64,000 nt of DNA from Nemertoderma westbladi (taxonomy: Eukaryota; Animalia; Xenacoelomorpha). A program made the position numbers and the translations under genes. Below the pieces are notes generated by a model. The model saw only the letters and a list, made by a program, of their open reading frames with translations, had not been told where the DNA came from and did no database searches. Every line of letters starts with the position of its first letter. Positions within the stretch are counted from its first letter, which is position 1. The stretch is from the NCBI GenBank assembly GCA_032718475.1, contig JAUCBJ010005087.1, forward strand, positions 740 through 64,739, in the 5' to 3' direction. This document shows, piece after piece, positions 1,162 through 46,582 of this stretch.

Positions 1162-1712
1162 TGTTAGCTTATTCAATCCCGCCAACACCCCATAAAGTTA
1201 TTAGCCGATAAGCAATATTGGGAGCCACGAGATTGGGCAATTAACCAACTCGTGCCATCCCAATAAGAGTGGGAAGGAGGCACACAATAGAAGGTCAGGG
1301 GCCAAACCCCTAACCCAAGGAGAACAGGTGGAGTGAACGGGAATACTCCACGGGGCGCCAACAAGGGTATTAACCAATCAGAGGGGGGAATGGCATCGAT
1401 TGAGTAGCAATAAGGCCACCGTGCAATATAACCAGTAACCTGTAATCATATCATTCAGTTTACTCAGTCAGCTATCCCAGTACAGTAAGGCAGTACGGTG
1501 ACTGTTAAGACCGTCGTCGCCACCGTCACCATATTACCGGTATATTAGCTTTATCTACTGTGCTATCTGTATCACTCATCATTTATTATCTCAACGTTAT
1601 CAGAGTTCGACAACGACACTAGAACAATTATTACCTTTTCCATTCACACGGCGGGGCGGGGACGCGTACGAAACACACCGGATAAACCGGGATCCTCTCG
1701 GATCCCGTCACA
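1162..1712 (+). repeat. 5' LTR of element A (551 bp)
   Basis: TGTTAG...GTCACA. Matches 8426-8976 except T1543/C8807. Contains CCAAT (~1375), ATATAA (~1426), an Inr-like TCAGT (~1455) and a U5 hairpin CGGGATCC-tctc-GGATCCCG (1688-1707). Confidence 0.95.
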
Positions 1713-1721
1713 GTCTTAACA
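1713..1721 (+). promoter_or_regulatory. Non-tRNA primer-binding-site position of element A (GTCTTAACA)
   Basis: Abuts the 5' LTR end and has no TGG. Exact reverse complement of TGTTAAGAC at 1503-1511 in the LTR. Confidence 0.6.
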
Positions 1722-1807
1722 TCTGAGAATTGCCTGAACTGTAACTGCCCGTCACAGTCTTAACACTAGGCCTGCCGAGCTGTGACTGACGGCTACCAAA
1801 GACGAAG

Positions 1808-3388
1808 ATGAGTCGAGAGAGAGGAACGACACCGCCGCGGACCCCGGACGACGATCTAACGATCCGCGAGGCCACGGCGAGACGATACGGACCCACGACG
1901 CCGGTCGATGCTACGTCGACCACGTCGATAACGAGCAACCCGGCGAACCAAGATGTGGGGGGTCGTCTACAGCGAGAGAGCGAGTCGAGTAGAGGAGAGA
2001 GCGAGACGGGGGAGGAGAGAGACGAGTCGACACAGGGCGGCGGTCGATATGCCGATGTCGCCGGTCAGCCACAGACCGAGGGCGACGAACGGCCCACCGG
2101 AACGGCAACGGTGGAGCCGACGGTACGACGCCGAACCCGGAGGGAGAGAGGAGAGGTCGGCGACGAGGATGTCGGGGTTTCTGATCGACTTCGACGAGCC
2201 TACGCCGCGACCCGGGAACAACTGAAGGAAGCTAGAGGAGGGGCTGAGATAGACCAGGTGAAGTTGAGGAGACGACTAGGTGAGTCGAACAGATACTTTG
2301 ATTACCTAGTGCGTTCTGGGCAGGGAGAACTGGCCGAGGAGAGAGCGAGAGGGGTTGCCTTCGAACTGTTTGGGCTATGGGAACGTAGGGGTATGGGGCC
2401 TGGTGTAGTGTACATAGGGCCATACTTAGTCGATGCCAGGGAAGTTAAGTTAGTGGGTTGGGCGGGACCGCACGAGGGCGAATCCGAGGTTAGCTCCGAG
2501 GATTCGGTCTCGTCGGTCAGCGAGGACCCCGGAAAGCGGGGGAAAGTTAGTAGGACGGAGGGGCGGCGGGAGTCCGTCGCAACCGATAAGTCTGCTACAT
2601 CCTCCGCAAAAGAAAGAAGGGTGCAGGAGATAAATCTGGCTGCATATAAATTAAAAATTGAAGAATTAGAGTGGCGACTGAGGGGAAGGAAGGAGCGAGA
2701 GAGTGAACGCGAAGAGCGTGAGGCAAGAGAACAGAGCGTGCGGTACACGTACAGTACGTACAGCAACCGTACGGGTGAGGGGGGTAGTAGTAGTGCGTTA
2801 GGAAATATTGGTATTAATAGTACCGTAGTAAATAACCCTAATCCCTTTATTACAGGAAATATTTTACCCGGTAGTAGTAATTTAAGTTTAAATTCAAATA
2901 ATAATATTAATTCAAATATTCAGAATAATCAAAATAATTCAAATAATTCGAATAGCAATTTAAATTTTGAAAATAATAACAACTCTAATTTAAATAATTT
3001 AAATAATTCCGTTTCAAATTCTAATAATTCGATTGATTTAACAAATAATATTGGGAATGGTGCTATTAATATGAACGTGCCAGACGTGTATAGCCCGGCA
3101 GACGGCGGCCTGGTAGGCCACGTAGTTAGTAGACAGGAAGTGGCGGGGTTGCGCCAACCCGACGGCGGCCTGGTAGGCCACGTAGTTGGTAGGCAGGAGG
3201 TAGCGGGGTTGAGCCAACCCGAGGTGGGCCTGGTAGGCCTCGCAGTAGTAGAGAGAGAGGCGGGGGTGAATAGACCCAGCCGTAGTAGAGACAGTGTGTC
3301 GACTAGAGAGGGGTGTAGAGACGAAGTAAGAGATATTGAAGTTAGATGTGGCGGGTGGGGGGGGGGCTACGGGCGCCCCACCACATGA
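1808..3388 (+). CDS. Element A ORF1: N-terminal Gag extension (R/E-rich, coiled-coil-like, Asn-rich low complexity)
   Basis: 526-aa ORF starting ~95 nt after the LTR and ending just after a G-run. Probably once continuous with the downstream ORFs. Confidence 0.65.
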   Translation: MSRERGTTPPRTPDDDLTIREATARRYGPTTPVDATSTTSITSNPANQDVGGRLQRESESSRGESETGEERDESTQGGGRYADVAGQPQTEGDERPTGTATVEPTVRRRTRRERGEVGDEDVGVSDRLRRAYAATREQLKEARGGAEIDQVKLRRRLGESNRYFDYLVRSGQGELAEERARGVAFELFGLWERRGMGPGVVYIGPYLVDAREVKLVGWAGPHEGESEVSSEDSVSSVSEDPGKRGKVSRTEGRRESVATDKSATSSAKERRVQEINLAAYKLKIEELEWRLRGRKERESEREEREAREQSVRYTYSTYSNRTGEGGSSSALGNIGINSTVVNNPNPFITGNILPGSSNLSLNSNNNINSNIQNNQNNSNNSNSNLNFENNNNSNLNNLNNSVSNSNNSIDLTNNIGNGAINMNVPDVYSPADGGLVGHVVSRQEVAGLRQPDGGLVGHVVGRQEVAGLSQPEVGLVGLAVVEREAGVNRPSRSRDSVSTREGCRDEVRDIEVRCGGWGGGYGRPTT

Positions 3389-3457
3389 AGATTAGTGGCG
3401 AGAGAGGGGGGGCAGAGAATGCCCCACAAGAGGGGTGTAGAAGTGTAGTAAGAGGTA

Positions 3458-4405
3458 GTGAAGTTAGAAGTAGCGGGTGGGGGGGGGGCTACGGGCACCC
3501 CACCGCGAGAGATTAGTAGCGAGAGAGGGGGGGCAGGGAGTGTCCCACAGGCGTCGGCGGATAATGCGCGGGCCGAGTTAGGTAAACCGCAACACCCGGC
3601 GATGGAGAGTAATAGGGGGATTGCGAGTATCCCCAGCGGCGTGCGATCGAGCAGAGAGAGACAGGTTGACGTCGCGAGAGGGCGGGCGACGGAACGTCGA
3701 GCCCAGTCAGAAGAGAGAAGATTAGTAGAGTTTAATAGAGAGGTCGAAGATAGAAGAAGATTAGTAGAGTTTAATAGAGGGGTCGAAGAGAGAAGAAAGG
3801 AAGATAATAGAAGAGTCGTTGCTAGGAGCAACCGGAGAGCGAGGACGGATAGCGAGCCGTCGATAGTAGAGATGGAGGTAGGGAGTCAGTGGGGTCGAAC
3901 TTCGGGAGATTGCCGTCGCCCCGGAGAAACGCACCGCACACCAAGAGAGGGGTACAGGATGTACCGATACGAAGAAGAGAACAGGAGTGGGGATCGAAGA
4001 GAAACTTCCCGACGTGATATAGCTGCCGATCGAGAGTACGGTAGTCGCGGGGAGATTCGAGATTCGAGAAGAATAAACTTCGATTCGGAAGGGCACATGC
4101 AGACTGCAGGACATACTGTAGGCCTTACTGCACATACTATTATAGGCCATGCTGGGAGAGATAGAGTAGGCGATAGGGTAGCGCGAACGACGGGATTAAA
4201 CCCGGAAGTCGCGGAGTACATACCGGTAGGTAGGCAAGAAGTGAATAGGCCTATATCGGTACCGGTACAGCAGCATGACTATAATTTCCAGGGACACAAC
4301 ATATATCCAGGGGAGGGGGGAATTATTGCAGATAGATGTATGGGCCCCAATATATTAACATCAACCCCAGTACCAAACATACCGGTGGGGGGGGGGACAG
4401 GGTGA
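3458..4405 (+). CDS. Element A ORF2: continuation of the disordered Gag N-terminal region
   Basis: 315-aa R/E/G-rich ORF with an internal repeat (RRLVEFNR x2). Bounded by G-homopolymer runs. Confidence 0.55.
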   Translation: MKLEVAGGGGATGTPPREISSERGGAGSVPQASADNARAELGKPQHPAMESNRGIASIPSGVRSSRERQVDVARGRATERRAQSEERRLVEFNREVEDRRRLVEFNRGVEERRKEDNRRVVARSNRRARTDSEPSIVEMEVGSQWGRTSGDCRRPGETHRTPREGYRMYRYEEENRSGDRRETSRRDIAADREYGSRGEIRDSRRINFDSEGHMQTAGHTVGLTAHTIIGHAGRDRVGDRVARTTGLNPEVAEYIPVGRQEVNRPISVPVQQHDYNFQGHNIYPGEGGIIADRCMGPNILTSTPVPNIPVGGGTG

Positions 4406-4463
4406 CATTCCCCCATCACAATATCAACAATATACCCCAATAGGAGCGAGAACATCGAACCCC

Positions 4464-6812
4464 TTGGACGAGAGCAGATCGTGCGACACGGAAATATGGA
4501 GGGGGCCGTTACCCCCAATGATATATCCGACGCAACAAATAAAGTCAACAACAAATAGGACGGACGGACCGTACCCAGCAGGAGAAACTATACAACATCC
4601 ATCGAACCCATTAGAAGCGCAAGCGATGGGAATGGCCACATTGATCGATGCGTTAAAAACTAGGATCGAGTTACCACCTGTGGAACCATTTAAATTCGAT
4701 GGGAGTAGGCCGGAAGAATATCTACAGTTTCGGCGCATGTATAGTAACGAAATATTAAGTAAGAACTTGACGCAGGCGGAGTGCCTAAAATATCTGCAAG
4801 TATATACAGGAGGCCCAGCATACGACATCGTGAGGCAATACCAGGGCATCGAGGGCGGCTTCACGACAGCATGGCGGGCGCTAGATAGGGAATACGGGCA
4901 CCCGGCCAAGATCATCCGGCAAACCCTGAGAGGCATAACATCGGATGGCCTACAGGACAATCCCGTTAGCATAAGGACCTTTGCAAACAAGGTCGAGAAG
5001 GCGTTAATCGTGTTAAAGACGCTAGACGCGCCATACGAACTCAACGCATCTAACAACATCACCACGATAGCGCAGGCACTGCCGGTCTGGTTACGAAGAA
5101 AGTGGAGGAAAATCGCTTTCTCCACACGGGAAAAGAAGGGTGCGGAACCGGGCCTGGAAGAAATGTCGAGCTTCCTCAACTATGAAGCCGAATTAATAAC
5201 AGACCCAGTCTATAGCGAGGATAGTTTGGGGACAAGCCATAAACCCGAACACGATCCTGCAGATCCACTCCCGAGAGTAGGACAATCACTACCACATGCA
5301 GCCACACAGGGGACTACCAGTCCACAGTTAGCTGGTAGTAGGGCCACACCGTGGTGGGGACAGAAAGAAAATAACACCATAAACAAACATAATCCCAATA
5401 TACCCAGTAGGCCGAGCACAGACAACCAAAACACTAAATCGGTACATATAAACCTACGCGCGATACGTGAAGGACTATACAGGGAACGCTATAATCCAGG
5501 ATTCGAATGTCAATTACACCGGGACGGAACCCATAAGACCAGGAGTTGTAAGCACTGGCAAGCGTTGCCCAAACAAGATCGTATAGCCTACACAGACGCA
5601 AACGGACTATGTCATCGATGTGTGGTAGAAGGACACAGATCCGGAGAGTGTAGAGAAACAGCAGTTAGAGAGTCCGAGACTGGAGGCCAGGCAATGGCCA
5701 CAAGCACTATAGAAGAGGAGAAGAAGAGAAAAGTACTACTCGGGGTAGTACCAGTAAAGATATCAGGAGAGGGCGGTCGATCAGTAACGACATTAATGCT
5801 GGTCGACAGCGGAGCAGCCTTCACGCTGGTGGAGAACTGGGTGGCCGAAGAGATAGGGCTAAAGACAAGGCCGAATAGAATGGCGGTGACTACCGTCTCG
5901 AGTAAAGATGAGGTCCTGGAGACGAGGGCGGGGCGGTGCAGGATAGCAGCGATTGCACCGGGATACGACTATGGGGCGACGATCGACCCCATCCACGTCA
6001 TAGAATCGATAAACATCAACGCCAGGCGACCAACCAACATTGAGGTCGAACAATATAGATTCCTGGACGGTATCGATTTCTCAATACCAAAGGTGGACGT
6101 CAGGAAGGTGTCCATTATAGTAGGGATGGACTGCCCGACGGCCCACGAGAGAACGAAGACGGTCTTCGGCGAAGACAGGCAGCGGGACCCGACGGCGATC
6201 CTCACGCCGTTCGGATGGATGCTTAGCGGCCCAGTTAAAACTAAGATCCCATGCAGTGTGACAGAGACATCAGGGTGCATGTTACCAGGCACCGCAGGCG
6301 CAGAGGACGAAGAGGAGAAACAGGAGATAGTAGATCCAGATAGGGAGGTGACAGTAAGAAAGTGGGCAGAGGAGAGTAGGTTTCCCAGCAAGCATCGGTA
6401 TGGAGATGGAGCGGAGCGGATGGCGAGGTGTCCGGAGGACAACACTCCGGGGGAGTGTCCAGAGGAGTGTCCGGAAGAGACGCAGGTCCGGTTTGGAGGC
6501 ATACCGACAAGGGGGAAGTCGAGAAGGAAGGCAGGATGGAAAGGGATAGGACTATTATTCTACCTTCTGTTTTTCCTGTTCTTTCACTTTCTATTCATTC
6601 TGCCGGCGGGAGACAACAAGGAGGGAGGTGGCATTTTGACGCCAGAGGGCGAGATAGTTAAGAAGGGGGCGGAGAGACCCGATTTCAGGGTGGCAGAAGA
6701 GGGAGAACCAATTCCTGGTGAGATGGAATTGGCGAAGAGAGTGCGGCGAATTCTACAGGACCTACAAGATCAGCAGTGGGAGAGTGCCTGTTGGAAGAAT
6801 CGCCCTAGTTAA
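4464..6812 (+). CDS. gag-pro: BEL/Pao Gag (capsid-like region + Cys/His knuckles) and aspartic protease, with a C-terminal hydrophobic segment
   Basis: Motifs PFKFDGSRPEEYLQF, CQLH..H..C and CHRCVVEGHRSGEC, protease LVDSGAAFTLV, and TPFGWMLSGP typical of the end of the BEL protease region. Then GIGLLFYLLFFLFFHFLFILPAG. Confidence 0.88.
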   Translation: MDESRSCDTEIWRGPLPPMIYPTQQIKSTTNRTDGPYPAGETIQHPSNPLEAQAMGMATLIDALKTRIELPPVEPFKFDGSRPEEYLQFRRMYSNEILSKNLTQAECLKYLQVYTGGPAYDIVRQYQGIEGGFTTAWRALDREYGHPAKIIRQTLRGITSDGLQDNPVSIRTFANKVEKALIVLKTLDAPYELNASNNITTIAQALPVWLRRKWRKIAFSTREKKGAEPGLEEMSSFLNYEAELITDPVYSEDSLGTSHKPEHDPADPLPRVGQSLPHAATQGTTSPQLAGSRATPWWGQKENNTINKHNPNIPSRPSTDNQNTKSVHINLRAIREGLYRERYNPGFECQLHRDGTHKTRSCKHWQALPKQDRIAYTDANGLCHRCVVEGHRSGECRETAVRESETGGQAMATSTIEEEKKRKVLLGVVPVKISGEGGRSVTTLMLVDSGAAFTLVENWVAEEIGLKTRPNRMAVTTVSSKDEVLETRAGRCRIAAIAPGYDYGATIDPIHVIESININARRPTNIEVEQYRFLDGIDFSIPKVDVRKVSIIVGMDCPTAHERTKTVFGEDRQRDPTAILTPFGWMLSGPVKTKIPCSVTETSGCMLPGTAGAEDEEEKQEIVDPDREVTVRKWAEESRFPSKHRYGDGAERMARCPEDNTPGECPEECPEETQVRFGGIPTRGKSRRKAGWKGIGLLFYLLFFLFFHFLFILPAGDNKEGGGILTPEGEIVKKGAERPDFRVAEEGEPIPGEMELAKRVRRILQDLQDQQWESACWKNRPS

Positions 6813-6944
6813 GAGGTTTAGTCGTCCAATATTTTGGACTGAGGGGGGTGGGAATGAGGGCGAGACGCCCTTCCCACAAGAAAATAATTATTTAATTAAA
6901 AAACAAATAATAAAAATAATTAAATAATAATTAGTAGAGGATAG

Positions 6945-7830
6945 TAAGAAGTAGCAGTTAGAAGTTAGGTAGAAGGAGAGTAGGTTAGAAGGCGGCGGGG
7001 TAAGGGAGTGTGGCATATTGTCATGCCACGAGTAGTAGTAGGGGGGTTGTGGGCACCGTAAGCGCCACGTAGAAGGTGAGTAAGTTAGAAGTCGGCGGGT
7101 AAGGGAGTGTGGCATATTGTCATGCCACGAGTAATAGTAGGGGGGTTGTGGGCACCGGAAGCGCCATGTAGAAAGTAGTAGTAGGGGGGTCGTGGGCACC
7201 GGAAGCGCCACGTAGAAAGTAGTAGTAGTGGAGTGGTTGTGGGCACCGTTAGCGCCACGTAGAAAGTAGTAGTAGTGGAGTGGTTGTGGGCACCGTTAGC
7301 GCCACGTAGAAAGTAGTAGTAGTGGAGTGGTTGTGGGCACCGTTAGCGCCACGTAGAAAGTAGTAAGAGAGGGGTTGTGGGCACCGGAAGCGCCACGTAG
7401 AAAGTAGTAGCAGGGAGTGGTTGTGGGCACCGCAAGCGCCACGTAGATAGAGGTATTAGTGGAGGTGGAGATGTAGATAGAGTAGAGTGGTAGAGACGGG
7501 CACATAGGGTGCCAGCTAGTAGAGTTAGAGATAGTAGAGAGTTAGTAGAGTTAGAAAGATAGTAGCAGAGTAGAAGCAGTAGTAGAGTGGTTGTGGGCAC
7601 CGTTAGCGCCACGTAGATGGAGGTAGAGTTAGTAAGAGGGTACGTAGTACCGGTTGTGGTTGTGGGCACCGTTAGCGCCACGTAGATGGAGGTAGAGTTA
7701 GTAAGAGGGTACGTAGTACCGGTTGTGGTTGTGGGCACCGTTAGCGCCACGTAGATGGAGATAGAGTTAGTAAGAGGGTACGTAGTACCGGTTGTGGTTG
7801 TGGGCACCGTTAGCGCCACGTAGATAGAGA
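6945..7830 (+). repeat. Tandem array in the 3' internal region of element A
   Basis: Core GGTTGTGGGCACCGTTAGCGCCACGTAGA recurs about a dozen times in ~45-bp and ~70-bp units. Strong purine skew continues to ~8200. Confidence 0.9.
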
Positions 7831-8416
7831 TAGAGTTAGTTGGAGGATTTTAGTCAGAGTTAGAAAAGAGTTAGTAGAGTTAGTAGTAGAGTTAGAGAGT
7901 TCTAGTTAGAGTTAGTAGAAAGTTAGATGCTTTTAGTTAGAGCTAAAAGTAGTAAGAGTTAGCAGAGAGCAGAGTTAGTAGTTAGTAGAGTTAGATAGTT
8001 AGTGTTAGTAAGTTAGATAAGGTAGATAGTATGATAGCACAGGGGTAGCATTGGAGATTAGGGCCTTAGGGAGTGGCAGAGAGTAGAGAGGAGATAGTGA
8101 GAAGAGCTGTTGGCGAGAAGTTAGAGTGCGATTCAGGTGTGGGGAGAGTGTAAGAGTGGGGAGAGAGCGAGTTGAGTTAGAGAGCGAGGGTTGGAGTGGC
8201 GAGAGTGTTGGGGAAACAAAAATTGTGTGAGAGAAGCGCACGATCGGCCCGACACGAGACGCCAGAGGGTAGTGACATCATACCCATAGGGAGCGGCCCG
8301 GAAAGCCGGCTCCGAAAAGAAAATAACTCCACCCCACACCCGATACTAGATCGGGATCCAGCGGGATTGTAACGCACTTTTTGGTTGATGCTATCTTCTT
8401 ACCGGGAAGATAGCAT

Positions 8417-8425
8417 GGGGGGGAG
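8417..8425 (+). promoter_or_regulatory. Polypurine tract of element A
   Basis: GGGGGGGAG directly before the TG of the 3' LTR, preceded by an 11-bp stem hairpin (8388-8416). Confidence 0.85.
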
Positions 8426-8976
8426 TGTTAGCTTATTCAATCCCGCCAACACCCCATAAAGTTATTAGCCGATAAGCAATATTGGGAGCCACGAGATTGG
8501 GCAATTAACCAACTCGTGCCATCCCAATAAGAGTGGGAAGGAGGCACACAATAGAAGGTCAGGGGCCAAACCCCTAACCCAAGGAGAACAGGTGGAGTGA
8601 ACGGGAATACTCCACGGGGCGCCAACAAGGGTATTAACCAATCAGAGGGGGGAATGGCATCGATTGAGTAGCAATAAGGCCACCGTGCAATATAACCAGT
8701 AACCTGTAATCATATCATTCAGTTTACTCAGTCAGCTATCCCAGTACAGTAAGGCAGTACGGTGACTGTTAAGACCGTCGTCGCCACCGTCACCATATTA
8801 CCGGTACATTAGCTTTATCTACTGTGCTATCTGTATCACTCATCATTTATTATCTCAACGTTATCAGAGTTCGACAACGACACTAGAACAATTATTACCT
8901 TTTCCATTCACACGGCGGGGCGGGGACGCGTACGAAACACACCGGATAAACCGGGATCCTCTCGGATCCCGTCACA
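8426..8976 (+). repeat. 3' LTR of element A
   Basis: Copy of 1162-1712 followed by TSD TCATC. Confidence 0.95.
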
Positions 8977-9469
8977 TCATCATTCTAATCATGTTTTATT
9001 ATTATTAATCTCGTCAATAAAATTATATATATATATATTAAATTCCAGCTTTGGTATTAATTACTGTGAACGTAGGCTAGTAAACTGTACCACACTTAAA
9101 AACATCAAATTAAATCAGTCCAATTATCTAATTCTAGAACATTCATTAAATATCTATTGACTATAAGAGTTAGCAAAAGCAAAAAAAAGTAATAAAAAAC
9201 GCTTAGAAACCGCACCAAAAAAGTAGAGATGGGCCTTTATGTGCGAATGAGTGGTTTCAAAAACATTAGTCATGCTTAGAAGAGTCAAAGTTTAGAAAAG
9301 TCAGATTTAAGATTTAAAGTTTGGCAGTAGTGTTTGGCATAGTGGCTACAACTGGTGTGCGCACTGTAGGCCTACATATGTACGTACACGAAGTGGGGCC
9401 TTCGCGCAGCACGTGAAATGAGTTAATGCTAAGTATCAACTCGAAAGGATTATAAAAACATAGGAGAAG

Positions 9470-19459: not shown

Positions 19460-21330
19460 TGCCATTCAGCAAATATTAGAAAGCTAATAACATTGTTTAG
19501 TGAGGAAGTTGCTAATGAACTTGAAACCATCGAGCAAACCTCAGTAGAAGAAGGATAATTCTCCTCTGATAATGACAATGTCCAGGTATTGTATGATGAA
19601 GAAAATGTGATAGTGATACTTGGTTTGTCCAATCCTGGACTAACCAAGTAAAATTATGTCACTTAATTCATCGGAACAACGAACTAGCGGCTTATGAGGA
19701 CGATGAATCAAAAGCCACAGTGGAGAGGTACAATGCAAAGTTGAGAGATGAACATGCAGTCAAATTCTTCACTCAAGAAGCTGTTGAACCTAACACTTAT
19801 GACAAGACGCTGTCCATGGGAGAAGAATTAGCAAGACAAATTCAAGAGACAACTACCCGATTCATTAAGGAAGAGGGACGTTATAAGATAGGTATTCTAC
19901 TCAGGAAGGGAGAACCCAGCTTCATTAACAACTTACCCCTTGCAGTCAAAAGATTAGAACAATTACATCGTCGACTATCAAGCAACGAAAGAGCGAAGGA
20001 GATGTATAAGAGGCAATTAAAGAAGTTCATCGAAAAGGGATACACTGAGCGAGTGCCTGTAGGAGCCAAAGTAACGGAGCAGATGTATTTTCTCACCCAT
20101 CATTACCTCCCCAAACATGGTAAACCAAATGAAGTCAGAGTAGTCTTTGATGGCTCAGCCCTCTACAAGAAGGGTCAATCCCCGAAATCAGAACTATTGC
20201 CAGGACCCAACTTATTGCAATCTCTGTTGGGCATTTTATCTGTCGGCAATATTCTATTACGTTTGCCTCCTATATCGAAGGTATGCTTCTGCAGGTAAAG
20301 GCATTGCCTAAAGCTTGGGATAGTTTACATTTTTTATGGTGGTCAGAAGGAGACTTCAACCAAGATCCTGTTGAGTATTGGATGACCATCCAAGCTTTCG
20401 GCATTATCTCAAGTCCATCTAACGCCTGCTCCACGCGAACAAACACGGACCAGAACAGAGACGCCTTCCCCAAAGCTGTCATTGACAACATCAAGAATGA
20501 CATATACATGGATGGCAATTTGAAATCCCTGCTCACAGTAGCGAAAGCAATAGAGGTAGCACAGGGTACAGTCGATTGTCACAAGAAAGGAGGATTTGGA
20601 TTAACTAAATTTACCAGCAACTCTAGAGAGTTTCTAGAGGCAATTCCTGAGAGTGAACAAGAAAACAAAGATCTGGACCTCATTAAGGACGACCTACCTG
20701 AGACCAAAATGTGATGATGGTCCAAAACGTGCAAAATGGTCTTTCAGTTCAAAAATAGCGCGACAATCCTGTTAGAAATAAAAGGAATTGCCTGAGTATT
20801 CTGTAAACCTATTTCGATCCCTTGGGATTCATCAGTCCCGTAACCCTTGTTGCTCGGAACCTTGTACAACAAATGTGGTTGGAGAATCACTCTTGGGATG
20901 ACACGCTACAAGGAGAACTGTTGACGTAATGGATGAAGTGGGAAGATTCTCTTCGAGCTATGGAGGAGTTTAAGATCCCTTGATCATATTTTGGACACTT
21001 TCTCCCTTCGTATTCCTATCAACTCCACGTGTTTGGAGATGTCAGCGATATTGGAATCGGCGTTGTTGCTTACTTCAGAGTGGAAACCCCAGAGGGAATC
21101 AAGGTATCACCCGCAGCTTCAAAATCCCTCATTAATAACAAGTTGCGGAACTAAAGACGGCCTTATACACTACTGCAATCAGAAAGAACTTTACAGAACA
21201 GGTAAACTATAAACTAGATAAAACCTTCTATTGGACGGATGCCACATTGGTGTTAGAAATCTCACTAACCAACACTATCAATTTAGTGTCTTCGTTACCG
21301 AGTTACGAGTTGCTATTATACTCACCTGAA
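19460..21330 (+). pseudogene. Decayed BEL/Pao pol fragment (RT + RNase H), relative of element B
   Basis: VRVVFDGSA, LLPGPNLLQSL, AFGIISSP, DIYMDGNL, YFDPLGFISP and LHVFGDVS motifs with stops and frameshifts. Collinear with ~40400-42300(-). Confidence 0.88.
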
Positions 21331-31200: not shown

Positions 31201-31663
31201 ACTACAACTGTATATGCCAGTCATTCTAATCGGCATAAGAATAATATGTTACGACACTTTCATAATTACTTTTAGAAATCAGTAATTATTACAGCAGGAT
31301 AATATCCCTCGCCTTCCCTATTGCGGGATTTATTATTATATCTACACGTCCCCCCCCCCCCCCCCCCGCCCCCACCACAACAATTATAGACAGTTACATA
31401 ATTAGAGAAGTCGGATTTTGAATTAAACCTATTCTAATTAGCTTTGCAATTATTGCTCCCGAAGGTTTATGGGAGTTTGAGTTAATTTTTTCGATTATGA
31501 GCTACACTGTATGTATATACTATGACGGGATGGATTCTGTGTAACTAGGATTTACAGTTAAACAGTAGTTTATAATTAGCCGTGGATAAAAATCTGTCGA
31601 TAATTCAACGTTAATTATTTCCTAATTCTAGGAAAAGAATTGATCACGATCGCAGATTACTAT

Positions 31664-32990
31664 TAATAATACACCATATTTGTATTAGGTCACTAAATAA
31701 TACACCATATTTGTATCAGGTCACTAAATAATACACCATATTTGTATCAGGTCACTAAATAATACACCATATTTGTATCAGGTCACTAAATAATACACCA
31801 TATTTGTATTAGGTCACTAAATAATACACCATATTTGTATTAGGTCACTAAATAAATACACCATATTTGTATCAGATCACTAAATAATACACCATATTTG
31901 TATCAGGTCACTAAATAATACACCATATTTGTATTAGGTCACTAAATAAATACACCATATTTGTATCAGATCACTAAATAATACACCATATTTGTATTCA
32001 GGTCACTAAATAATACACCATATTTGTATCAGGTCACTAAATAATACACCATATTTGTATCAGGTCACTAAATAATACACCATATTTGTATTAGGTCACT
32101 AAATAAATACACCATATTTGTATCAGATCACTAAATAATACACCATATTTGAATTCAGGTCACTAAATAATACACCATATTTGTATCAGGTCACTAAATA
32201 ATACACCATATTTGTATCAGGTCACTAAATAATACACCATATTTGTATCAGGTCACTAAATAATACACCATATTTGTATGAGGTCACTAAATACTGTAAT
32301 ACACCATATTTGTATCAGGTCACTAAATAAATACACCATATTTGTATCAGATCACTAAATAATACACCATATTTGTATTCAGGTCACTAAATAATACACC
32401 ATATTTGTATCAGGTCACTAAATAATACACCATATTTGTATCAGGTCACTAAATAATACACCATATTTGTATCAGGTCACTAAATAATACACCATATTTG
32501 TATGAGGTCACTAAATACTGTAATACACGATATTTGTATCAGGTCACTAAATAATACACCATATTAGTATCAGGTCACTAAATACTGTAATACCCCATAT
32601 TTGTATCAGGTCACTAAATAATACACCATATTTGTATCAGGTCACTAAATATTACACCAGATTTGAATCAGGTCACTAAATAATACACCATATTTGTATC
32701 AGGTCACTAAATAATACACCATATTTGGATCAGGTCACTAAATAATACACCATATTTGTATCAGGTCACTAAATACTGTAATACCCCATATTTGTATCAG
32801 GTCACTAAATAATACACCATATTTGTATCAGGTCACTATATATTACACCAGATTTTTATCAGGTCACTAAATAATACACCATATTTGTATCAGGTCACTA
32901 AATAATACACCATATTTGTATCAGGTCACTAAATAATACACCATATTTGTATCAGGTCACTAAATACTGTAATACACCATATTTGTATCA
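31664..32990. repeat. 31-bp minisatellite (TAAATAATACACCATATTTGTATCAGGTCAC)n, about 42 units; last degenerate unit at ~51375-51415
   Basis: Direct tandem array that resumes after the LINE/LTR insertion. Confidence 0.96.
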
Positions 32991-33654
32991 CTACTACTAC
33001 TAGGATCGGCATGCTGCATTGCAGCTGCATTTTTAAGAATGCTGTGCCGGCTTATCGACAAAATTGCACCGCCATAACTCCCTATCACCCATGACATTTA
33101 CTAGATCATCCGCATCTTCAAGGCCAGTGTCCTTTAAGATGCGTCTCAAAAAAGTCATGGGCTGTCCACCATGCTTATTCACTCCATGAGGCTGCCAAAG
33201 TACAAGATTATGCACTGGTTGGTCCTCACGGCGAAAGCAATGTCCTGCAAAGCGGAGGCGATTTTGTTCTAGTGTCAAGCTTGGGGGAACCAGTGAGACA
33301 CCTCCAATGTTATATAGTGTCTGGTTGGAGATGTGTGCATTGTACTTGACACAATGAACCCGGCGTAGCATTCTAGTGAATGTGCCATCCAGAGATTTGG
33401 TGTCCTCAGCAGTTAGAGCCCAGCATGGACTCCCATAGAGGAGTACTGGAACTACTGTTGCTCTAAATAATCGGACCTTAATTTTCCGATTAATTCTCGG
33501 TGACTTCCAAATCCTGGAAAGCCTATTCAAGGCTGCCCATGCCTTTCCCTTACGTATTCGAAGGTCTTCACCTGACTTCCGGATCCATGATCCCAGGTAA
33601 CAGAAGTCATCCACATGCTCAAGCATTCCATCTTTTGAGCTTATGCTTATCCGT
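32991..33654 (-). mobile_element. 3' part of RTE-clade LINE (C-terminal ORF, short 3' UTR, (TAG)n tail)
   Basis: VDDFCYLGS, KVRLFRATVVPVLLYG and RLRFAGHC motifs. Tail TAGTAGTAG. 12-bp TSD ATATTTGTATCA at 32979-32990 and 51375-51386. Confidence 0.9.
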
Positions 33655-34853
33655 TGTTCGCGCTTTTAGACCTTTAGCAGTTTAACCTGCCAAATTTAGG
33701 TATCTTCTAGGTTATAAATCGACTTTAGCCTATGACAAGTATTTGATACACTACATTAGACGAAGCCAGCCTATGCGCGACCATTCGCCCGCTGGATTTA
33801 CCCGGGAGACTGGATTCGGAAGCTCTGACCTTATTGCGGTGTAGGCCTACTGTATTATTCGATTGATTGTTAATATATAATCTCTGACAAATATTATTCA
33901 CTTTCGGGAAATATCAACAGTTCCTTTAGGACGTGGCGCTCTAAGTATATAAACAGAGTTATGACTTACACTAAACACAACAGGATGGCTATTGATTCAC
34001 GTATAAAGCGCATTCTTTAGGAGATGCTTTGTTATCTATCAAACTCATGAAAACTACCGCACAATGCTGCACACCAATCTCCCGACCTTCACTAATTTTA
34101 GTCACATATAAAGAGAACAGCAACCGACACATGTAGGGCCTATGAAATCGCATTAGATTCACTCCAAAACCACTATAATGTAAGTCGCAATTGCTATATG
34201 TAACCGGTCTCTCACCTTCAGTATATCAAGAAGATTGGGGTTTTATGATTATTTATCGATATTCTCCAAATATAACAATATTCCATCAAATAAACCATAA
34301 TAACCGACAGTAAATAGCAGTAAAATAATGCGGTGAAAGGTACATTCTGGCATTTGAGTCTGACCAGTTCGGTTTGTGATGTGCTATGCGTTATGATATG
34401 GTTTGATAACAGTTATACGTTTCTATGATCAAAGCCGTTCTAATGTTTGGCTAAAGTCTGAAACACAGAATAATTCCACAGCCGATGTTCTGGTATCAGG
34501 AAAAAAGGTAAACAAAGACCATAATGCATTGCGCGATTTCCCGGAGGCTTCTGTACAAATAAAATGAAAATCGCTCTGATTGGTCGACAGAACAAAGAAC
34601 AAAGAAAAAGTTACACGTGGACATATCAGCTGACAGATGTCGTCATCTGAACTTACACTGTATCAAGAGTATTTTGGCGTATTGCGACATAAAATCGCTA
34701 GTTATGTCCGCTAAAGTACACATACCGAAGAAATGGCTTTTTATGTCCACTAAAACACCGGTACAGTAAGGAAACGGCTTTTTATGTCCGCTAAAACACC
34801 TACAGAGTACTTTGCGGGGAAAATGACTAGCTAATTCCGCAAAAGCCTTTACA
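33655..34853 (-). repeat. 3' LTR of element B
   Basis: TG...CA ends. PPT adjacent at 34854-34861. Confidence 0.95.
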
Positions 34854-34930: not shown

Positions 34931-36643
34931 TTAGTCTTTCTTGCGCGGACGGCGTTTACGCAGTTTTTTGAGGCTAGCAAGAGTCCTTTTCTCTTTGGGG
35001 CGAGCCACTTTACTAGGAGGGCTATAACTCCTGGGTGAAGGGTGCAATACAATTGCATCAGAAGGTTTAGGGTTACAGTCAGTGTGTCCGCCGGTCGAGG
35101 TACCCGGTTGATCGGTATCAACCTCAGTGGAACGAGGTCGAACAACCTTGAGAGCGCATTTTAAGACAGCAGCTCTTACTGGTCCCTGACGGGTCGTTTG
35201 CACGAAAGCGGTAAGTGGACCGTGTGTAGTGAGAATTTCCTCGATTTGATGATTCTTTTCAACTCGCGTTCTCTAGCTCTATAGGAATCGATATGCTTCT
35301 CCTCGAGCTGATTTTCCTCCGCTTGTTGTTGGAAGCATTCGTCTAAAACGCTTTTAGAGTAGAGTCGTCCAAGTTCGATATCTTCTTAGAGATTCTGGAT
35401 TTCCTGATCGAACTGAGATAAAGCTAATTCGTTTACCGCTTGGACTTGCTGCTGCAATTTACGTTTCTCTAAACAATTGTAGGTTCCTTTTCCGATCTTT
35501 TGACGAGTAGTGTCCAACGCGTTTCGTACAACTCTCTCCTCCTCCTCGGTGACAGGTTGTATCGGGTTAAACCGGGACGATGATACGATTGAATGACGAT
35601 ATTAGGTGTCCGCGTCCCAATCTGGCTAGGGAAGATGGGCGAATATCTAGGGAGTCCACAACCGGAGTGCCACTGACTAACTTTTCGGGTGACACTAGAT
35701 CTTTGAACAGTGAGTACAGTTCGGGAGGATCCGTGATTCTATTAGGATCAAGAGTCTGAGGTCTCACTAGGAAGTGAGGAGGTCTGACCGAGTATTCCGG
35801 AACTCTGATCATAGGTTTATTTAAGGATCGTTTGAATCGAATGAGCGTAGGTGATACATCGAACAAATTTCGCTCGAAACTCCCGTAAATATAGCGAGTA
35901 AAACCGTGTTTAAAGCAACGTCTCCGCGGATGTTTATGTCTTTCCGTTTGCTGATTGGGTCTAGGGCATTCGTCGCAGTAATACCAAAGACGCACGTCCT
36001 GCAGGGGAAACGCGGGTGATCGTTCTCCAGTTTTACAATATTCCTCCATCTGTTCGAAGCTATCTGGGATGACAGGTAGTGGTCGATCGGCGGTAAGATA
36101 CATCATAGTGAAATAGAGCCGTTTGAGTTCTATCATAGGGTCATGATGTATACCTTGAGGATATCGAGTTTCTAGATTTTGTTGACTGGCAATATTGAGA
36201 TATGTTTCTCTCAGGAATTCCAGATAATCGTTGAAGTTACCGCGTTTATCCGGTTCTTTAACGTCTTCTCTTTCGAGTCGATTTCGAATAGAATTTTCGC
36301 ATTCGATTTTAAGTTTATCGTTCCGACTCCGCTGGGTAGGATATTTAAATAGTACCATTTCCCTTTCGGTGTCGACATAGTCCGTATCGTGTAAATCGAT
36401 AGGATGGCCAGTAGTTAAGAAGTCCATATACGTACCATTACGATGCGTATAGCGAGCGGTGAATTTTCTATAGTCCAATTCACGCGTAAGTTGCTACTGG
36501 GACATCGGCGGTTCGATATAATGACCATCGTCCTCCGTAGTAGTTGGACTAGCGTCGCCGCGTATCAAGCTATCAACAAACGCTTGTAAAGGTAGAGTAT
36601 ATCGCTCCCTGATACCAAGATCATCTTCTATCAACTCAGTCAT
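34931..36643 (-). pseudogene. Extra ORF of element B (unknown protein; Cys/His motif, coiled-coil-like region, basic tail), disrupted
   Basis: ATG at 36643 is in frame with the 303-aa ORF 35567-36478 across a single TAG (36494-36496). The frameshifted continuation is E/Q-rich and a final frame ends KKLRKRRPRKKD. Confidence 0.6.
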
Positions 36644-38341: not shown

Positions 38342-40468
38342 TTACGTTGGGGAGTCCCTAGATGTTTGTTGGATTAGGGAGGTGGTCGTGGGAAGAGTAT
38401 CTTGCCTTCCATAGTTTCCGGAGAGTTCTCTGTCTCTTTCCAGTAAACATAAACGACCAACTGGGCGATTGAGCTGCTGTGTCTCGAAGACAATTCCCGG
38501 TTTCTTAAAGTTACGTCGCATGACGACGAGTTCTACCGATCGCACCAAACCATCATCCGAGATATGAGTCTCGATGATACGACCTGTCTGCCACCGCTTA
38601 CGTGGAAGATCTGAATCCACAATAAGGATCATGTCTCCAGCGCTGACGTTTTCTTGCTGCGCAAACCACTTAGTTCGAAGTTGTAGCGTGGGCAGATAAT
38701 GTTTTTCGAAATGGTCAGCGAAACGACGGGATAACAACTGCATAAGTTGCCAAGTTTGCCGGCAGTATTCGTCTCCGTCCGTGATTTCCGATCGTGGGAG
38801 CATGGCTACAGGTTTCTTCAGTAGGAAGTGCGCGGGTGTTAGCGCTTCCATGGAATCGGGACTCGATGAGACTGGCATAAGCGGTCTCTTGTTGAGATAG
38901 GCGGCGATTTCCTCCATTAACGTCCGCAAAAGTTCGTCGGTGAGATACGCGCGGCACGGCACTATAAAGTGAAATGCGGTCTTCACGCTCCTGATTAATC
39001 TCTCCCAACTTCCTCCCCACCAAGGGGCGTCGGCGGCATTGAAGGTCCAGCTAGACGCTGTTACCCTTAGCTGATCGTCCACCTGTCTTTGGTTCCAATC
39101 TTTGACGTAAGCTTTGATTTCATTGTTGGCACCAATGAAGTTCGTTCCCTTATCAGATCTCATCGTGTTACTAGTTCCAAAGCGAGCGATCTGTCGGCGT
39201 AAGCTCAATAGGAAGCTGTTGGTAGATAAATCGTTCACCACATCGAGATGGATAGCTCTACAAGTCATACAAACAAAGATGACGCACCATCTCTTGACTA
39301 TAGTCCTAGCACGATATACTTCAATAGGGCCAAATAAATCTACACCGGTATTAGTAAAGGGTGGTTCATAGAGGCTTACTCGTTCCCTAGGTAATTCTGC
39401 CTCTCGCTGTGTTAAAGGCCTACTGAATGCTTTCCTACAGGGTATGCAGTTCCTAAGAACTTGGTTCAGAGCTCTACGGGGTTTATAAAAATAATAGCGA
39501 GTTCGAATTTCGCTAAGAACTCGTTCTCTACCAGCATGATAAAGCTTACTGTGAACATCTACAATCATCTTGATTTGTATTTCAAGATTTCTAATGAGTA
39601 TGGGAAACTTAGTGTCAAAGGATAATGGAGCATTAGTTAGTCTTCCTCCAACACGTATTAACCCATCTATCATTGTGCTAGAGAAACGATCCCTTAAGCG
39701 CATCTGTGGATTTCTTAACAATAGGAAATACTTATCGGAATCCTCATAGCATTGCAGGAGTCTCAACATCTGCTTATTGGTTTCTTCATGCTCCTGGTAA
39801 CTGATCTTCTCCTTCAGAAACCTGTGGGATATCTGGTATTTGGGAAGATCTTTAACAACATGGACCTGCGCAGATGTCAGTGGAGCGGTATCACTAGTGG
39901 TCTTCGTCCTGGAGTAGTGATGATGAAAACATCGCTTTAAATATGTAACGGCCTTACAGAGCCGATTCCAGGAACTATAGTGATGTATCACTCTCTGCAG
40001 GAGAGGTGAGAGTCCTTGCGAGACGTCTGGTATTCCAGATTTCCAATCCCTCTCTCTGATTTCCACAACAGACTTATTTGTGGCTGTGGGTTTCGGATCC
40101 AAAGCGTCGTCTCCGGAAGTGTGTAGTACAGACAGATCTACCACGGGTTTAAATAACTTCGATTTACTCGCCCGAGTTTTAGGTTTGACTTTCTCCGCTC
40201 CCTTGGCCTGTCTAATCTCCGCCGTAGTAAGATGAGGAGGCCATTCATCCTCTTCTTTGCTTAGGAAGTCGGGTCCACCTAACCAGTCTGGAGTATCTAT
40301 CAGTTCTTGTGGAGTTGCTCCCCTTGAGGCGATGTCGGCTGGATTAATCGTTCCAGGGCAATGTCTCCATTGATCTATCTTCGTGCGACTAAGTATAATG
40401 GCTACTCTGTTGGTAACGAAGACGCTGAACTGACAGACTTCATTGGTTATATACTCCAACACGAGCAA
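38342..40468 (-). CDS. pol: Element B pol: RNase H C-terminus + integrase
   Basis: WRHCPGTINPADIASRG; HHCC zinc motif (H..LYH...CIPC); DDE motifs GVDLFGP / SDKGTNF / GGSWERLI; C-terminal DGLVRSV and RPVGRLCLLE. Confidence 0.93.
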   Translation of the reverse strand: MLVLEYITNEVCQFSVFVTNRVAIILSRTKIDQWRHCPGTINPADIASRGATPQELIDTPDWLGGPDFLSKEEDEWPPHLTTAEIRQAKGAEKVKPKTRASKSKLFKPVVDLSVLHTSGDDALDPKPTATNKSVVEIRERDWKSGIPDVSQGLSPLLQRVIHHYSSWNRLCKAVTYLKRCFHHHYSRTKTTSDTAPLTSAQVHVVKDLPKYQISHRFLKEKISYQEHEETNKQMLRLLQCYEDSDKYFLLLRNPQMRLRDRFSSTMIDGLIRVGGRLTNAPLSFDTKFPILIRNLEIQIKMIVDVHSKLYHAGRERVLSEIRTRYYFYKPRRALNQVLRNCIPCRKAFSRPLTQREAELPRERVSLYEPPFTNTGVDLFGPIEVYRARTIVKRWCVIFVCMTCRAIHLDVVNDLSTNSFLLSLRRQIARFGTSNTMRSDKGTNFIGANNEIKAYVKDWNQRQVDDQLRVTASSWTFNAADAPWWGGSWERLIRSVKTAFHFIVPCRAYLTDELLRTLMEEIAAYLNKRPLMPVSSSPDSMEALTPAHFLLKKPVAMLPRSEITDGDEYCRQTWQLMQLLSRRFADHFEKHYLPTLQLRTKWFAQQENVSAGDMILIVDSDLPRKRWQTGRIIETHISDDGLVRSVELVVMRRNFKKPGIVFETQQLNRPVGRLCLLERDRELSGNYGRQDTLPTTTSLIQQTSRDSPT

Positions 40469-40477
40469 AGCATCGGT

Positions 40478-42300
40478 TCAATAGACAGTTTTCTCCAGTG
40501 GATAGTCGATATGTTCTGTTACATTCCGGCCAATGGCTGTAGCGTATAGAGCAGCTTTTAACTCCGCTCGAGGAACTTTCAACTTGTTGTTTATCAATGC
40601 CTTAGAGGTAACCAAGGCGACTTTGATTCCATCCGGAGTTTCAACTCTCAGGTAGGCTACTATACCTATTCCCATATTGCTGGCGTCTCCAAACACATGG
40701 AGTTGATAGGAATACGTAAGGAGAACATGACCAAAATATGAACGGGAAATTATAAAGTTCTCGATGGCTGGTAGAGAATCTTCCCATTTCATCCACTTCT
40801 TTAATAGTTCTCCCTTAAGTGGATCGTCCCATGAGTGGTTTTCAAGCCACATTTGTTGTACTAAACTCCGAGCAATCAATATAACTGGGCTAATAAATCC
40901 CAATGGATCGAAATAAGTGCTCAGGATACTTAGACAAATCCGTTTAGTCCGAACTGGATTATCTCGCTGTTTTAGCTGGAAAAACAGGATATCTCTCTCT
41001 GTGTCCCATTTCAAACCCGTTTAGTCCGAACTGGATTATCTCGCTGTTTTAGCTGGAAAAACAGGATATCTCTCTCTGTGTCCCATTTCAAACCAAGTGT
41101 CTTGGTTTCTGGAAGATCGTCCTTGATTAGGTCTAGATCTTTAACTCCTCGATCTTCTACCGGGATCGATTCCAGAAACTCACGTGAGTTGCTGGTGAAT
41201 TTAGTTAATCGAAATCCACCTCTTTTCAAGCACTCTACCGTTCCTTTGGCGACATCAATGGCTTCTTCCACCAATGGGAGGGACTTTAAATTGTCGTCCA
41301 TGTATATATCCCGTGTGATGTTGTCTATAACCTCTTTAGAGAAGGCGTCCCGGTTGTCATCAGCAGTGGTGCGCACCACTGAGCAGGCGTTTGAAGGGCT
41401 TGAGATGATCCCAAAAGCCTGGATGGTCATCCAATACTCCACCGGTTTCTGGTTGAGGTCTCCTTCAGGCCACCACAGAAATCGTAGGCTGTCTCGATCC
41501 CTATCCAGCGCCTTGACTTGTAAGAACATGCCTTCTATATCGGAGGCGAAAGCGATTGAATATTGTCGTAATCTTAAGAGTATTCCCAACAAGGATTGGA
41601 GTAAGTTGGGTCCTGGTAACAACTCGGAATTAAGGGATTGGCCCATGTAGAGGGCGGAGCCTTCAAATACTACCCGGACTTCATGGGGTTTACCGGGTTT
41701 GGGAACGTAACGTAATGATGTGTTAGATAGTACGTTCTCTCAGTTATGGGTGTTTCTTCCGGTACTCGCTCCGCATATCCCTTGTCAATAAATTTCTTCA
41801 ACTGAGTCTTGTACATTTCTTTAGCTGAAGCATTTGCCGTAAGGCGTCGATATAGTTGTGCAATTCTTTTCTCCGCCAAGGGTCAGTTGTTTATAAATTT
41901 AGGTTTTCGCTTTCGAAATGGTAGACCGATTTCATATCTACCTTGATCTTTAAGAAAACGTGTAGTTGTCTCCTGAATCTGCTTGGCTCTTTCATCTTCT
42001 ACCAATAGGGCCTTATCGTAGGAATTGGGCTCTACAGCCTCTTGAGTAAAGAATCATACGGCGTGTTCATCGCGAGTCTTCGCGTTGTAGTGATCTATCA
42101 CTTCATTCAGTTCGTCGTTGTACGCTGATTGTTCTGCTGGATGAATGAGGTGACATAGGTTCACTTGGTTTTGCCAAGTATCGTTTTCTGTAAGGAGGTC
42201 GATGGTCTTCTCCTCGTTGAAGAGTTGGTGGATGTCGTCATTATCTGAGGATTATGGAGTTCCCTCAATTATGTCATCTACCTCACTGAACTCCTCTTCC
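40478..42300 (-). pseudogene. pol: Element B pol: reverse transcriptase + RNase H N-terminus (frameshifted)
   Basis: PGPNLLQSL, SDIEGMFLQV, FGIISSP, DIYMDD, FDPLGFISP and LHVFGDAS motifs. Broken by stops and a 77-bp tandem duplication (40940-41016 / 41017-41093). Confidence 0.92.
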
Positions 42301-42384
42301 CATTCTCTTACCTGGTATACCCATTATTTGGGTAACCTTTCCATGAGAGTTCTACGGGAAGGGCCAGTAAAGTACCAACCTACT

Positions 42385-42849
42385 CTAGTTCTTCCCGCAT
42401 AGGCTTGTAGTGGTTGCGGTTGAGCAGGCCGATTTCTCCAATGTCTCAAGCGCCTCATGCGCATTTTGGCCGATGAGTATTTGCACTCCAGGGTAGTCTG
42501 TGTTGAATCTAGGTATCTTAAGCTGCTGGGTGAAATCGTCCTCATCCCAGTTATAAGGTTCCACTTGGCTGGTAGCGAAGTTCTTTATCGCCACCATTTT
42601 TACTGACCTTATACTGTGTTCTCCTAGTTCATCCTGGGGGGTGGACAACGCGCCTACGTAGTAGTCTGTAGCTACTGTAGATTTCCAATCCTGCATAATT
42701 CCTGAAAGGTTCAACTTAGTTCGGAACTTGGGTTGTCCAACAAAGATGTCTTCGGCTAGTTCTTTGTCGATGAATGTTCCGGTGCTGCCGGAGTCAAGGA
42801 GGGCGTTCACTATATAGCTCCCTTTTAACCCGTGGACTCTCAACTGCAC
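42385..42849 (-). CDS. Element B aspartic protease
   Basis: NALLDSGSTGTFI and VQILIG motifs, with RTRVGWYFTGP in the adjacent frame. Confidence 0.85.
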   Translation of the reverse strand: MQLRVHGLKGSYIVNALLDSGSTGTFIDKELAEDIFVGQPKFRTKLNLSGIMQDWKSTVATDYYVGALSTPQDELGEHSIRSVKMVAIKNFATSQVEPYNWDEDDFTQQLKIPRFNTDYPGVQILIGQNAHEALETLEKSACSTATTTSLCGKN

Positions 42850-42917
42850 TACGGGAAATTCTCGGATCCCTACATTGGAAGTTGATGCTTTCCAAGATGG
42901 TTGTCAGTCAGGAGTAG

Positions 42918-45900: not shown

Positions 45901-46582
45901 GTCCTTGACGTTGTTGAAACAGGTGTTCCTCTAATCGCTCAAAAGAACTGAAGAATCCCTGTACATATCCTGCTGCCGACCTCTTCCACACAGCTGGATC
46001 TCGAGTATCCTTTACTACTCCCATCCTGTATAAATCCTCCCAGGCAGCTTCCGATAAGTTAAATGGGAGTCCGGGTCCGGGGAAGTTCCATTGCGACTCG
46101 ACAATAGACTTCAGTTCCTCTCTTGTGTATCCCGCATAACTATCCTTGGTCGATCGCTTACTTCTCGCCCAATCAATTTGGTGTTCCTCCACCGCAATCA
46201 ATACCCTAGTGAGTACGGCTGCAGGAAGGATGAGAAGGGGATCCGAATAAACCTCATCTGCCATCTTTGCTCCGCGCTCGGGTGTCAGCTCTACAGTATC
46301 CGAACTACTGGAGCTGTCGGGCCGCTGAGAAATAAGTTCTCGGCTCGAGGGTTGCTGCTGTTTAGCAGCTGCTTCTTGATCCTGCTTGACTTGAGCCCGA
46401 GTGCCTATGATAGACCTACGGTGTTGGACTAGCCTAGGGTCTGATACTACTACTGGAGGGATGATCTTTCTTACAGTAGGAGGTGAGTTGAACTTTGGTC
46501 TCACATGTTCCACACTCCTGTCTGGTTCACAGATGGTTGTATCTAGGAGACTGTCTGACAGGTTTTGCTTTGTGTCAGACAT
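42918..46582 (-). pseudogene. gag: Element B Gag (two frames: 44024-46582 and 42918-44045)
   Basis: Long N-terminus with (AAAEAERK)n helix repeats, then KFNGDEMKWLPF and three BEL-type knuckles CVLCDGPHRLSAC, CYNCLRRGHQRRTC, CAKCGAKHHFLLH. Confidence 0.9.

Follow-up and report, generated by a model that had tools for sequence, protein, structure and literature searches.

BEL/Pao retrotransposons with primer-binding sites complementary to their own LTRs: a putative self-primed lineage

BEL/Pao elements in a Nemertoderma westbladi contig

The stretch of DNA analyzed here (the window) consists of 64,000 nucleotides of the Nemertoderma westbladi contig JAUCBJ010005087.1 (assembly GCA_032718475.1, positions 740 to 64,739 of the forward strand). 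Element A (1162-8976, forward strand) is bounded by 551-bp LTRs (1162-1712 and 8426-8976) that start with TG, end with CA and differ by 1 mismatch; both LTRs are immediately flanked by a 5-bp TSD, TCATC (1157-1161 and 8977-8981), and a purine-rich tract (PPT; 8412-8425) adjoins the 3' LTR, features shared with BEL/Pao elements in general. Two forward-strand ORFs without Pfam matches (ORF1, 1790-3388, 532 aa, and ORF2, 3452-4405, 317 aa, both measured stop to stop) are located 5' of an 817-aa ORF (4359-6812) that encodes a BEL-type combination of Gag (DUF1759, E = 4.6e-11) and aspartic protease (Asp_protease_2, E = 4.8e-6). Beyond the protease, the Pfam scan of these three long ORFs detected no pol domain (RNase H, integrase), and no RT match was found anywhere in 1162-8976; tandem repeats of 47 nt and 69 nt occupy 6984-7846, the place where pol would be. 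Because Gag and protease are encoded but RT is not, element A is, judging from its gene content, a young non-autonomous BEL/Pao derivative, assigned to this superfamily by Gag-protease alone. A search for longer proteins with the element A Gag-protease produced no autonomous partner (0 of 6442 candidates qualified). The same protein matches the non-TGG loci described below at 19-30% identity (best E = 6e-27), with no match to the loci L127-L131 or to element B.

Element B is located on the reverse strand, with a 1199-bp 5' LTR (48614-49812) and a 3' LTR at 33655-34853. As in Belpaoviridae, it has TG...CA LTRs, a 5-bp TSD (ACGGA), a PPT and a gag-pol region (38342-46615, in several broken frames) that encodes DUF1759 (E = 1.4e-6), protease, RT, Peptidase_A17, integrase and DUF5641 in the BEL order (PR-RT-RH-IN). 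The presence of BEL-specific Pfam domains led us to reject the assignment of elements A and B to the Tf1/sushi chromoviruses. The putative non-tRNA primer-binding site (PBS) of element B (48602-48613) is complementary, in 12 of 12 positions, to an arm at 49365-49376 (LTR positions 437-448); this 12-mer, which is AT-rich and nearly palindromic, finds its match in 1 of 4000 shuffles, and the first TGG after the LTR is at +203. Element B had been put forward in the first-pass annotation of this DNA as a second, independent case, and its 12/12 match is confirmed.

Several other features of the window were observed. A 308-aa ORF without Pfam matches (35567-36493, reverse strand) lies between the integrase and the PPT of element B. 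The ORF pieces on the two sides of element B (33033-33665 and 49859-50341, reverse strand) may be parts of the RT of one non-LTR retrotransposon that was split by the insertion of this element. A third BEL pol fragment is present on the forward strand (19747-21105), with an RT piece (20244-20708) that is 76% identical to the element B RT at the protein level, and tandem arrays with periods of 11 nt and 31 nt occur from 17272 onward and at 31572-33000.

The first-pass annotation had claimed that the 9 nt after the 5' LTR of element A pair with the LTR itself, flush with its boundary. Indeed, GTCTTAACA (1713-1721, directly 3' of the LTR) is the exact reverse complement of 1503-1511, with perfect pairing from the first post-LTR base (offset 0). 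Hereinafter, 1503-1511 is called the arm, that is, the predicted 3' end of a self-primer (a second copy, 8767-8775, lies inside the 3' LTR), and 1713-1721 the putative non-tRNA PBS. The other structural claims fared equally well: no TGG occurs ahead of ORF1 (the first TGG past the LTR is at 1956, and the first ATG at 1808); GGTGAC and GTCACC flank the arm at 1497-1502 and 1525-1530, as read straight from the LTR sequence; and the U5 hairpin beside the PBS (1688-1707, with an 8-bp stem, 1688-1695/1700-1707) is present, in a segment common to many subfamilies. Bulging C1502 adds two pairs to the arm-PBS helix, for a total of 11 bp. An exact 18-nt duplicate of the LTR end plus PBS is found at 1748-1765, with a much lower predicted probability of pairing with the arm (0-0.13). 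Given that the LTRs are 99.8% identical, this 9-nt arrangement appears to have transposed recently. The LTR of element A contains a predicted core promoter (1427-1460), with TATAA at 1427-1431 and an initiator-like TCAGTT at 1455-1460; the predicted start near 1457 places the arm at about +47 to +55, so that it is probably internal rather than the 5' end of the RNA. A candidate intron (1485-1603; the GTAAGG at 1485 is the only GTRAG donor) would enclose the arm, and its 1485/1603 junction does not match the PBS. The canonical poly(A) hexamer is absent from the LTRs of both elements.

The first-pass annotation had also raised the possibility that the family LTR really ends elsewhere, the 9 nt being just part of a terminal inverted repeat. 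Both an LTR that extends to 1721 and a 219-bp terminal-inverted-repeat element were rejected: the LTR ends at 1712, the TSD comes directly after 8976, the 3' LTR holds the left arm only, and the family depth in sequencing contigs drops past 1712-1714. The estimated probability of a chance match, ~0.002, is borne out by strict tests, with the complement contained in 6 of 4000 dinucleotide-shuffled element A LTRs and 10 of the 6652 internal 9-mers of element A complementary to the LTR (~0.0015 in each case). When the rule is loosened to allow offsets of 0-5 nt and both contiguous and spliced matches, 8 of 418 cross-family pairs reach 9 nt. Thus, the probability of a chance match in element A is 0.15-2% depending on the rule, which is significant, although, given the 8 cross-family pairs, not overwhelming for this element by itself. 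Element A is the weakest case considered here, with 9 bp, no RT for phylogenetic placement, a helix that is disfavored from the predicted start and an arm within a candidate intron.

Own-LTR complementarity among the relatives

The RT of element B was aligned with 55 homologs, which led to 96 loci and 16 further regions from genome bins; no relatives of the elements were found among viral contigs. BEL elements were also found in bacterial genome bins (G001-G005; L081-L096), accompanied in G001 by tandem tRNA arrays; this DNA most likely comes from animal hosts. TGG-type BEL elements of G001 (L127-L130) are ~13-15 kb long and carry extra ORFs after pol, two of which, in L128 (572 and 622 aa), are Pfam-negative.

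In the 13 relatives with both LTR ends defined, as in elements A and B, the 10 nt that follow the LTR do not include TGG; three of the 13 have TGG at +10 to +12. Contiguous matches to the LTR are weak in most relatives until introns are considered. The LTRs show a GTRAG-type donor and a pyrimidine-rich acceptor right before a partial match, which is completed by joining the exons. Under a strict splice rule, at least 10 perfect pairs were found in 12 of 18 elements compared to 0 of 456 cross-family pairs; under a relaxed acceptor rule, a perfect 10-15-nt own-LTR match was found in 14 of 17 family representatives compared to 0 of 418 cross-family pairs (the splice rules were loosened after an initial round, L070 was given an offset of 9, and the families are related, so that these counts should not be read as independent trials). 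For L037, L070, L139 and L141, the position of the LTR ends was inferred. Among the 14 matches, 11 exist solely across the exon-exon junction of a predicted LTR intron (67-1022 nt long): 15 nt in L006, 12 in L023, L039 and L050, 11 in L037, L046, L087, L138, L139 and L141, and 10 in L068. Contiguous matches were found in element B (12 nt), L070 (12) and L074 (10). Below the threshold of 10 perfect pairs are element A (9), L081 (8) and L044 (6), the latter two fitting only with mismatches. The paired site starts 0-5 nt after the LTR end in all cases (9 in the degenerate L070) and begins with GT in 13 of the 17 representatives, element A among them. By comparison, four TGG-type controls (L128-L131, confirmed as BEL with Pfam) give own-LTR matches of only 6, 4, 7 and 3 nt.

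All nine loci with an undefined LTR end give 10-13 nt across the junction, compared to 1 of 72 cross pairs, four of these loci being close kin of loci already counted and the rule having been tuned after viewing them. In a blind scan of 52 more loci, with mostly incomplete LTRs, at least 11 nt were found in 9 loci (some of which duplicate earlier families and two of which look spurious) compared to 51 of 2652 cross pairs, and 32 of the 52 gave nothing. A mismatch-tolerant score with loose splice rules was dropped in favor of perfect matches because its null was inflated (40 of 456 cross pairs with at least 10).

Co-variation of arm and PBS, which the first-pass annotation had proposed to look for, is seen in the relatives. 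Between L085 and L087, 2 of 11 pairs show compensatory changes, which fall across the junction; 1 of 10 pairs is compensated between the intron-less L070 and L074, and 1 of 10, plus one broken pair, between L001 and L081. In 12 of 13 relatives, a poly(A) hexamer is found 0-93 nt 3' of the arm (immediately next to it in L085 and L087), suggesting that the arm is within the transcribed repeat. The spacer between the PPT G-run and the 3' LTR tends to be longer in elements with a larger LTR-to-PBS offset (Spearman 0.61, p 0.016, n 15, including only rows with a GGGG-type PPT from related families), a hint that the paired site sets the end of the cDNA. In the RT tree (45 rows consisting of unnamed loci, without references from named BEL clades, and midpoint-rooted only), the TGG elements all fall to one side of a branch that is long but supported. 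Element B, itself on a long branch, is placed next to the spliced group rather than within it, with support left open, whereas L074 and L070 are nested among spliced families in a supported group, pointing to intron loss in their lineage.

The sequences of these elements show the loss of TGG, complementarity at the LTR boundary that is specific to each family, splice signals around a split arm, and compensatory changes; from the splice signals together with the junction match, we infer splicing. The sequence comparisons strongly support the existence of a tRNA-independent, self-complementary BEL/Pao lineage. That part of the first-pass claim of a self-priming BEL/Pao lineage is upheld, through the relatives, whereas its analogy with Tf1 has to be modified, the arm being probably internal and, in most relatives, assembled across a predicted intron.

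Copies, predicted folds and alternative primers

Logan contigs from four DNA sequencing runs and one run guessed to be RNA were compared with element A; the latter run covers only 1162-1449 and provides no evidence on expression either way. Contigs of run X1 are identical to the window over 1455-1704 and 1691-1827 (depth 727 and 323, respectively, with flank 29-51; depth does not translate into copy number), and a contig of X2, another sample, is identical over 1693-1777. On the LTR side, the identical X1 and X2 contigs that span the LTR end extend for only 20-22 letters, and the window itself possibly derives from X1. Given identical contigs in two samples, the copy in the window probably did not acquire its 9-mer leader through a lesion, and loss of TGG in this copy only, one of the outcomes that the first-pass annotation had allowed for, is unlikely, with the LTR end plus leader intact in X1 (1691-1827) and X2 (1693-1777). 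The 9-mer leader is multi-copy, and no TGG version was found among the contigs listed for X1, X2 and X5. At least 10 contigs of X1, at least 7 of X2 and at least 2 of X5 track the window to 1714 (the LTR end plus GT) and then diverge. The arm itself varies, with 1503 T to A in 4 X1 contigs and 1507 A to G, and both arm and PBS belong to subfamily-variable segments. Variant contigs with different upstream sequence retain a TATA-like motif ~30 nt before 1455, in support of a start near 1457.

The element A family looks modular (1162-1900; X1, X2, X3 and X5): contig depth, when summed, reaches high values in U3, at the U5 end and in 1825-1880, whereas the segments with the arm and PBS (1450-1650 and 1720-1795) have far lower values. 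One X2 contig joins the LTR end at 1712 back to 1453, with 26 other letters in between, that is, a tandem R-U5 arrangement. A DNA pattern scan for the U5 end of element A yielded 0 matches in metagenome contigs.

Folding predictions depend strongly on the assumed ends of the RNA. The 9-bp helix of element A is missing from the minimum-energy fold of 1455-1810; from starts at 1457 or 1483, its probability is 0.08-0.10, at 1.3 kcal/mol above the minimum, and from 1503 it is 0.70-0.94, dropping to 0.001 when the fold is extended to 1900. The promoter motifs point to a start near 1457 and folding favors 1503, both being predictions. The element B helix has a probability of 0.97-0.98 from LTR positions 400 or 437, and ~0 from 105 or 300. 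Among the relatives, the mean pair probability of the helix exceeds 0.5 in 7 of 13 spliced leaders versus 0 of 12 unspliced ones; in the other 6 spliced leaders the helix is not favored (P 0-0.21), and in L074 the cis fold is.

Several other sources of the primer, or roles of the pairing, have to be weighed. A host tRNA fragment, either a half or an internal piece, might prime these elements, given that half-tRNA priming is known in some Ty1/copia lineages (PMC6317226, in the portion available). The 69 tRNAs (25 isotypes) used for comparison come from another bin, not from the host, and were predicted without introns, which leaves this reading some room. In this set, the best complement was 6 nt for element A, 5 nt for element B and at most 9 nt for the relatives, compared to 17 nt with tRNA-Lys for the positive control L131, and an 18-nt PBS complementary to a tRNA 3' end, as in the ICTV description, was found in neither A nor B; no tRNA genes were detected in the 64-kb window and no Rfam match in 1100-2000. 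The first-pass annotation had accepted that a tRNA match of the 9-mer would count against it, and in this partial set of tRNAs of another organism the best complement of the 9-mer was 6 nt long. Furthermore, the PBS varies by family and tracks each family's own LTR, leaving fragment priming extremely improbable. Another possibility is that the primer is encoded by the elements and acts in trans, with short LTR transcripts (from solo LTRs or poly(A)-ended in the 5' LTR) or a second packaged RNA trimmed to the arm and annealed to the PBS. The poly(A) hexamers 0-93 nt past the arm in 12 of 13 relatives (abutting it in L085 and L087), the great abundance of element A LTR parts and a cis helix that is disfavored in elements A and B as well as in 6 of the 13 spliced leaders are all compatible with such a primer, but a trimming step would still be required, 7 of the 13 spliced leaders, along with L074, favor cis folding, and cis priming has a precedent in Tf1 (PMC7175516, in part). 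We consider a trans primer unlikely, if the most serious of the alternatives.

Slightly less plausible still is that a genuine pairing under selection has a structural role, in packaging, dimerization or a splice-sensing switch, with another molecule as the primer. Short palindromes occur in several PBS-region sequences, including the element B 12-mer, and priming by the arm is itself a prediction. Yet, the distance of the paired site from the LTR end is 0-5 nt throughout (9 in L070), this site takes the place of TGG, its offset is correlated with the PPT spacer, another candidate primer is not apparent, and tRNA-primed BEL controls have no such match. Finally, the lineage-wide pattern could be real while the 9-nt match of element A is a chance or decayed remnant, the arm perhaps being spliced out. 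The 8 of 418 cross-family pairs that reach 9 nt, the candidate intron around the arm, the weak fold and the T to A change at 1503 in 4 X1 contigs are in line with this possibility; nevertheless, it seems improbable in view of the strict probability of 0.0015, the agreement of offset 0, GT start and lack of TGG with the relatives, the 11 bp attained with one bulge, and recent transposition, as indicated by the nearly identical LTRs. In our assessment, elements A and B belong to a BEL/Pao branch in which the PBS matches the element's own LTR, not a tRNA, and likely self-prime in cis with their own RNA.

Proposed priming mechanism and relation to known elements

Under cis self-priming, transcription would start in the 5' LTR upstream of the arm, and, in most relatives, removal of a spliceosomal intron within the LTR would join the arm halves; elements A and B, L074 and L070 have an unsplit arm, for which no splicing would be required. 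The arm would pair with the 9-15 complementary nucleotides located 0-5 nt past the LTR. Cleavage of the RNA immediately 3' of the arm, probably by RNase H in analogy with Tf1, would leave a 5' fragment (~55 nt in element A) that RT would then extend into U5. The template for the DNA that lies upstream of the cut, including the intron, would be the 3' LTR portion of the RNA; the intron would persist only if this copy stays unspliced, and its occasional splicing would yield intron-less families. Element A, having no RT, would be copied in trans. On balance, and with somewhat less confidence than for cis self-priming of elements A and B, we favor a broader scenario in which a wide animal BEL/Pao branch swapped tRNA priming for a spliceosome-built primer, such that only the spliced 5' end can prime and the unspliced 3' copy transmits the intron, with A and B as the intron-free version.

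According to the available parts of the sources, self-priming is a described feature of Tf1 and Tj1 and a predicted one of Tcn1 and TAR (PMC7175516, PMC4600332, PMC6317226); in Tf1, the first 11 bases pair with the PBS and the RNase H cut falls between bases 11 and 12 (PMC7175516, PMC4600332). Like Tf1/Tf2 of S. pombe, Tj1 of S. japonicus and the Tf1/sushi and Tcn1 chromoviruses (Ty3/gypsy), as portrayed in those parts, the elements described here have no tRNA PBS and a PBS complementary to their own LTR transcript. They differ in belonging to BEL/Pao, with no Ty3/gypsy chromovirus Pol; in the arm, which is predicted to be internal, ending a ~55-nt fragment in element A and a longer one in the relatives, with cleavage predicted as well; and in that, in most relatives, the arm exists only across a predicted splice junction and needs the upstream exon. 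The 8-bp hairpin of element A (1688-1707) is a possible counterpart of the U5 inverted-repeat stem-loop by the PBS of Tf1/sushi elements. The TAR lineage of plant Ty1/copia elements (Houba, Osr-1) is similar in that self-priming outside Ty3/gypsy was predicted from sequence, and different in superfamily and host, with no mention of an intron-split primer in the accessible part of the source (PMC6317226).

The ICTV description of Belpaoviridae, as far as available, specifies an 18-nt PBS for tRNA-Arg or tRNA-Gly and priming by host tRNA (PMC8742986), which fits the TGG controls L128-L131 but not A, B or their relatives. A literature search, with most subscription journals, Repbase Reports, GyDB and supplements outside its scope, found no report of a self-primed BEL/Pao element or a splice-built primer. 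In the accessible portions, the terms PBS, tRNA and primer are absent from three BEL/Pao surveys (PMC554778, PMC3118150, PMC6238403), and nothing on BEL self-priming appears in PMC3601003, PMC8220671 and PMC3286476.

If the proposed mechanism is correct, a third superfamily of LTR elements would have gained self-priming, and the tRNA-primed description of Belpaoviridae by the ICTV would fail for a broad branch from marine animals. Such elements would also be expected to evade silencing by tRNA fragments directed at the PBS. The mechanism would also explain the persistence of introns in the LTRs and the failure of PBS finders on such elements. A splice-assembled primer would couple splicing to the start of reverse transcription and could provide a tissue-specific switch for hosts or elements.
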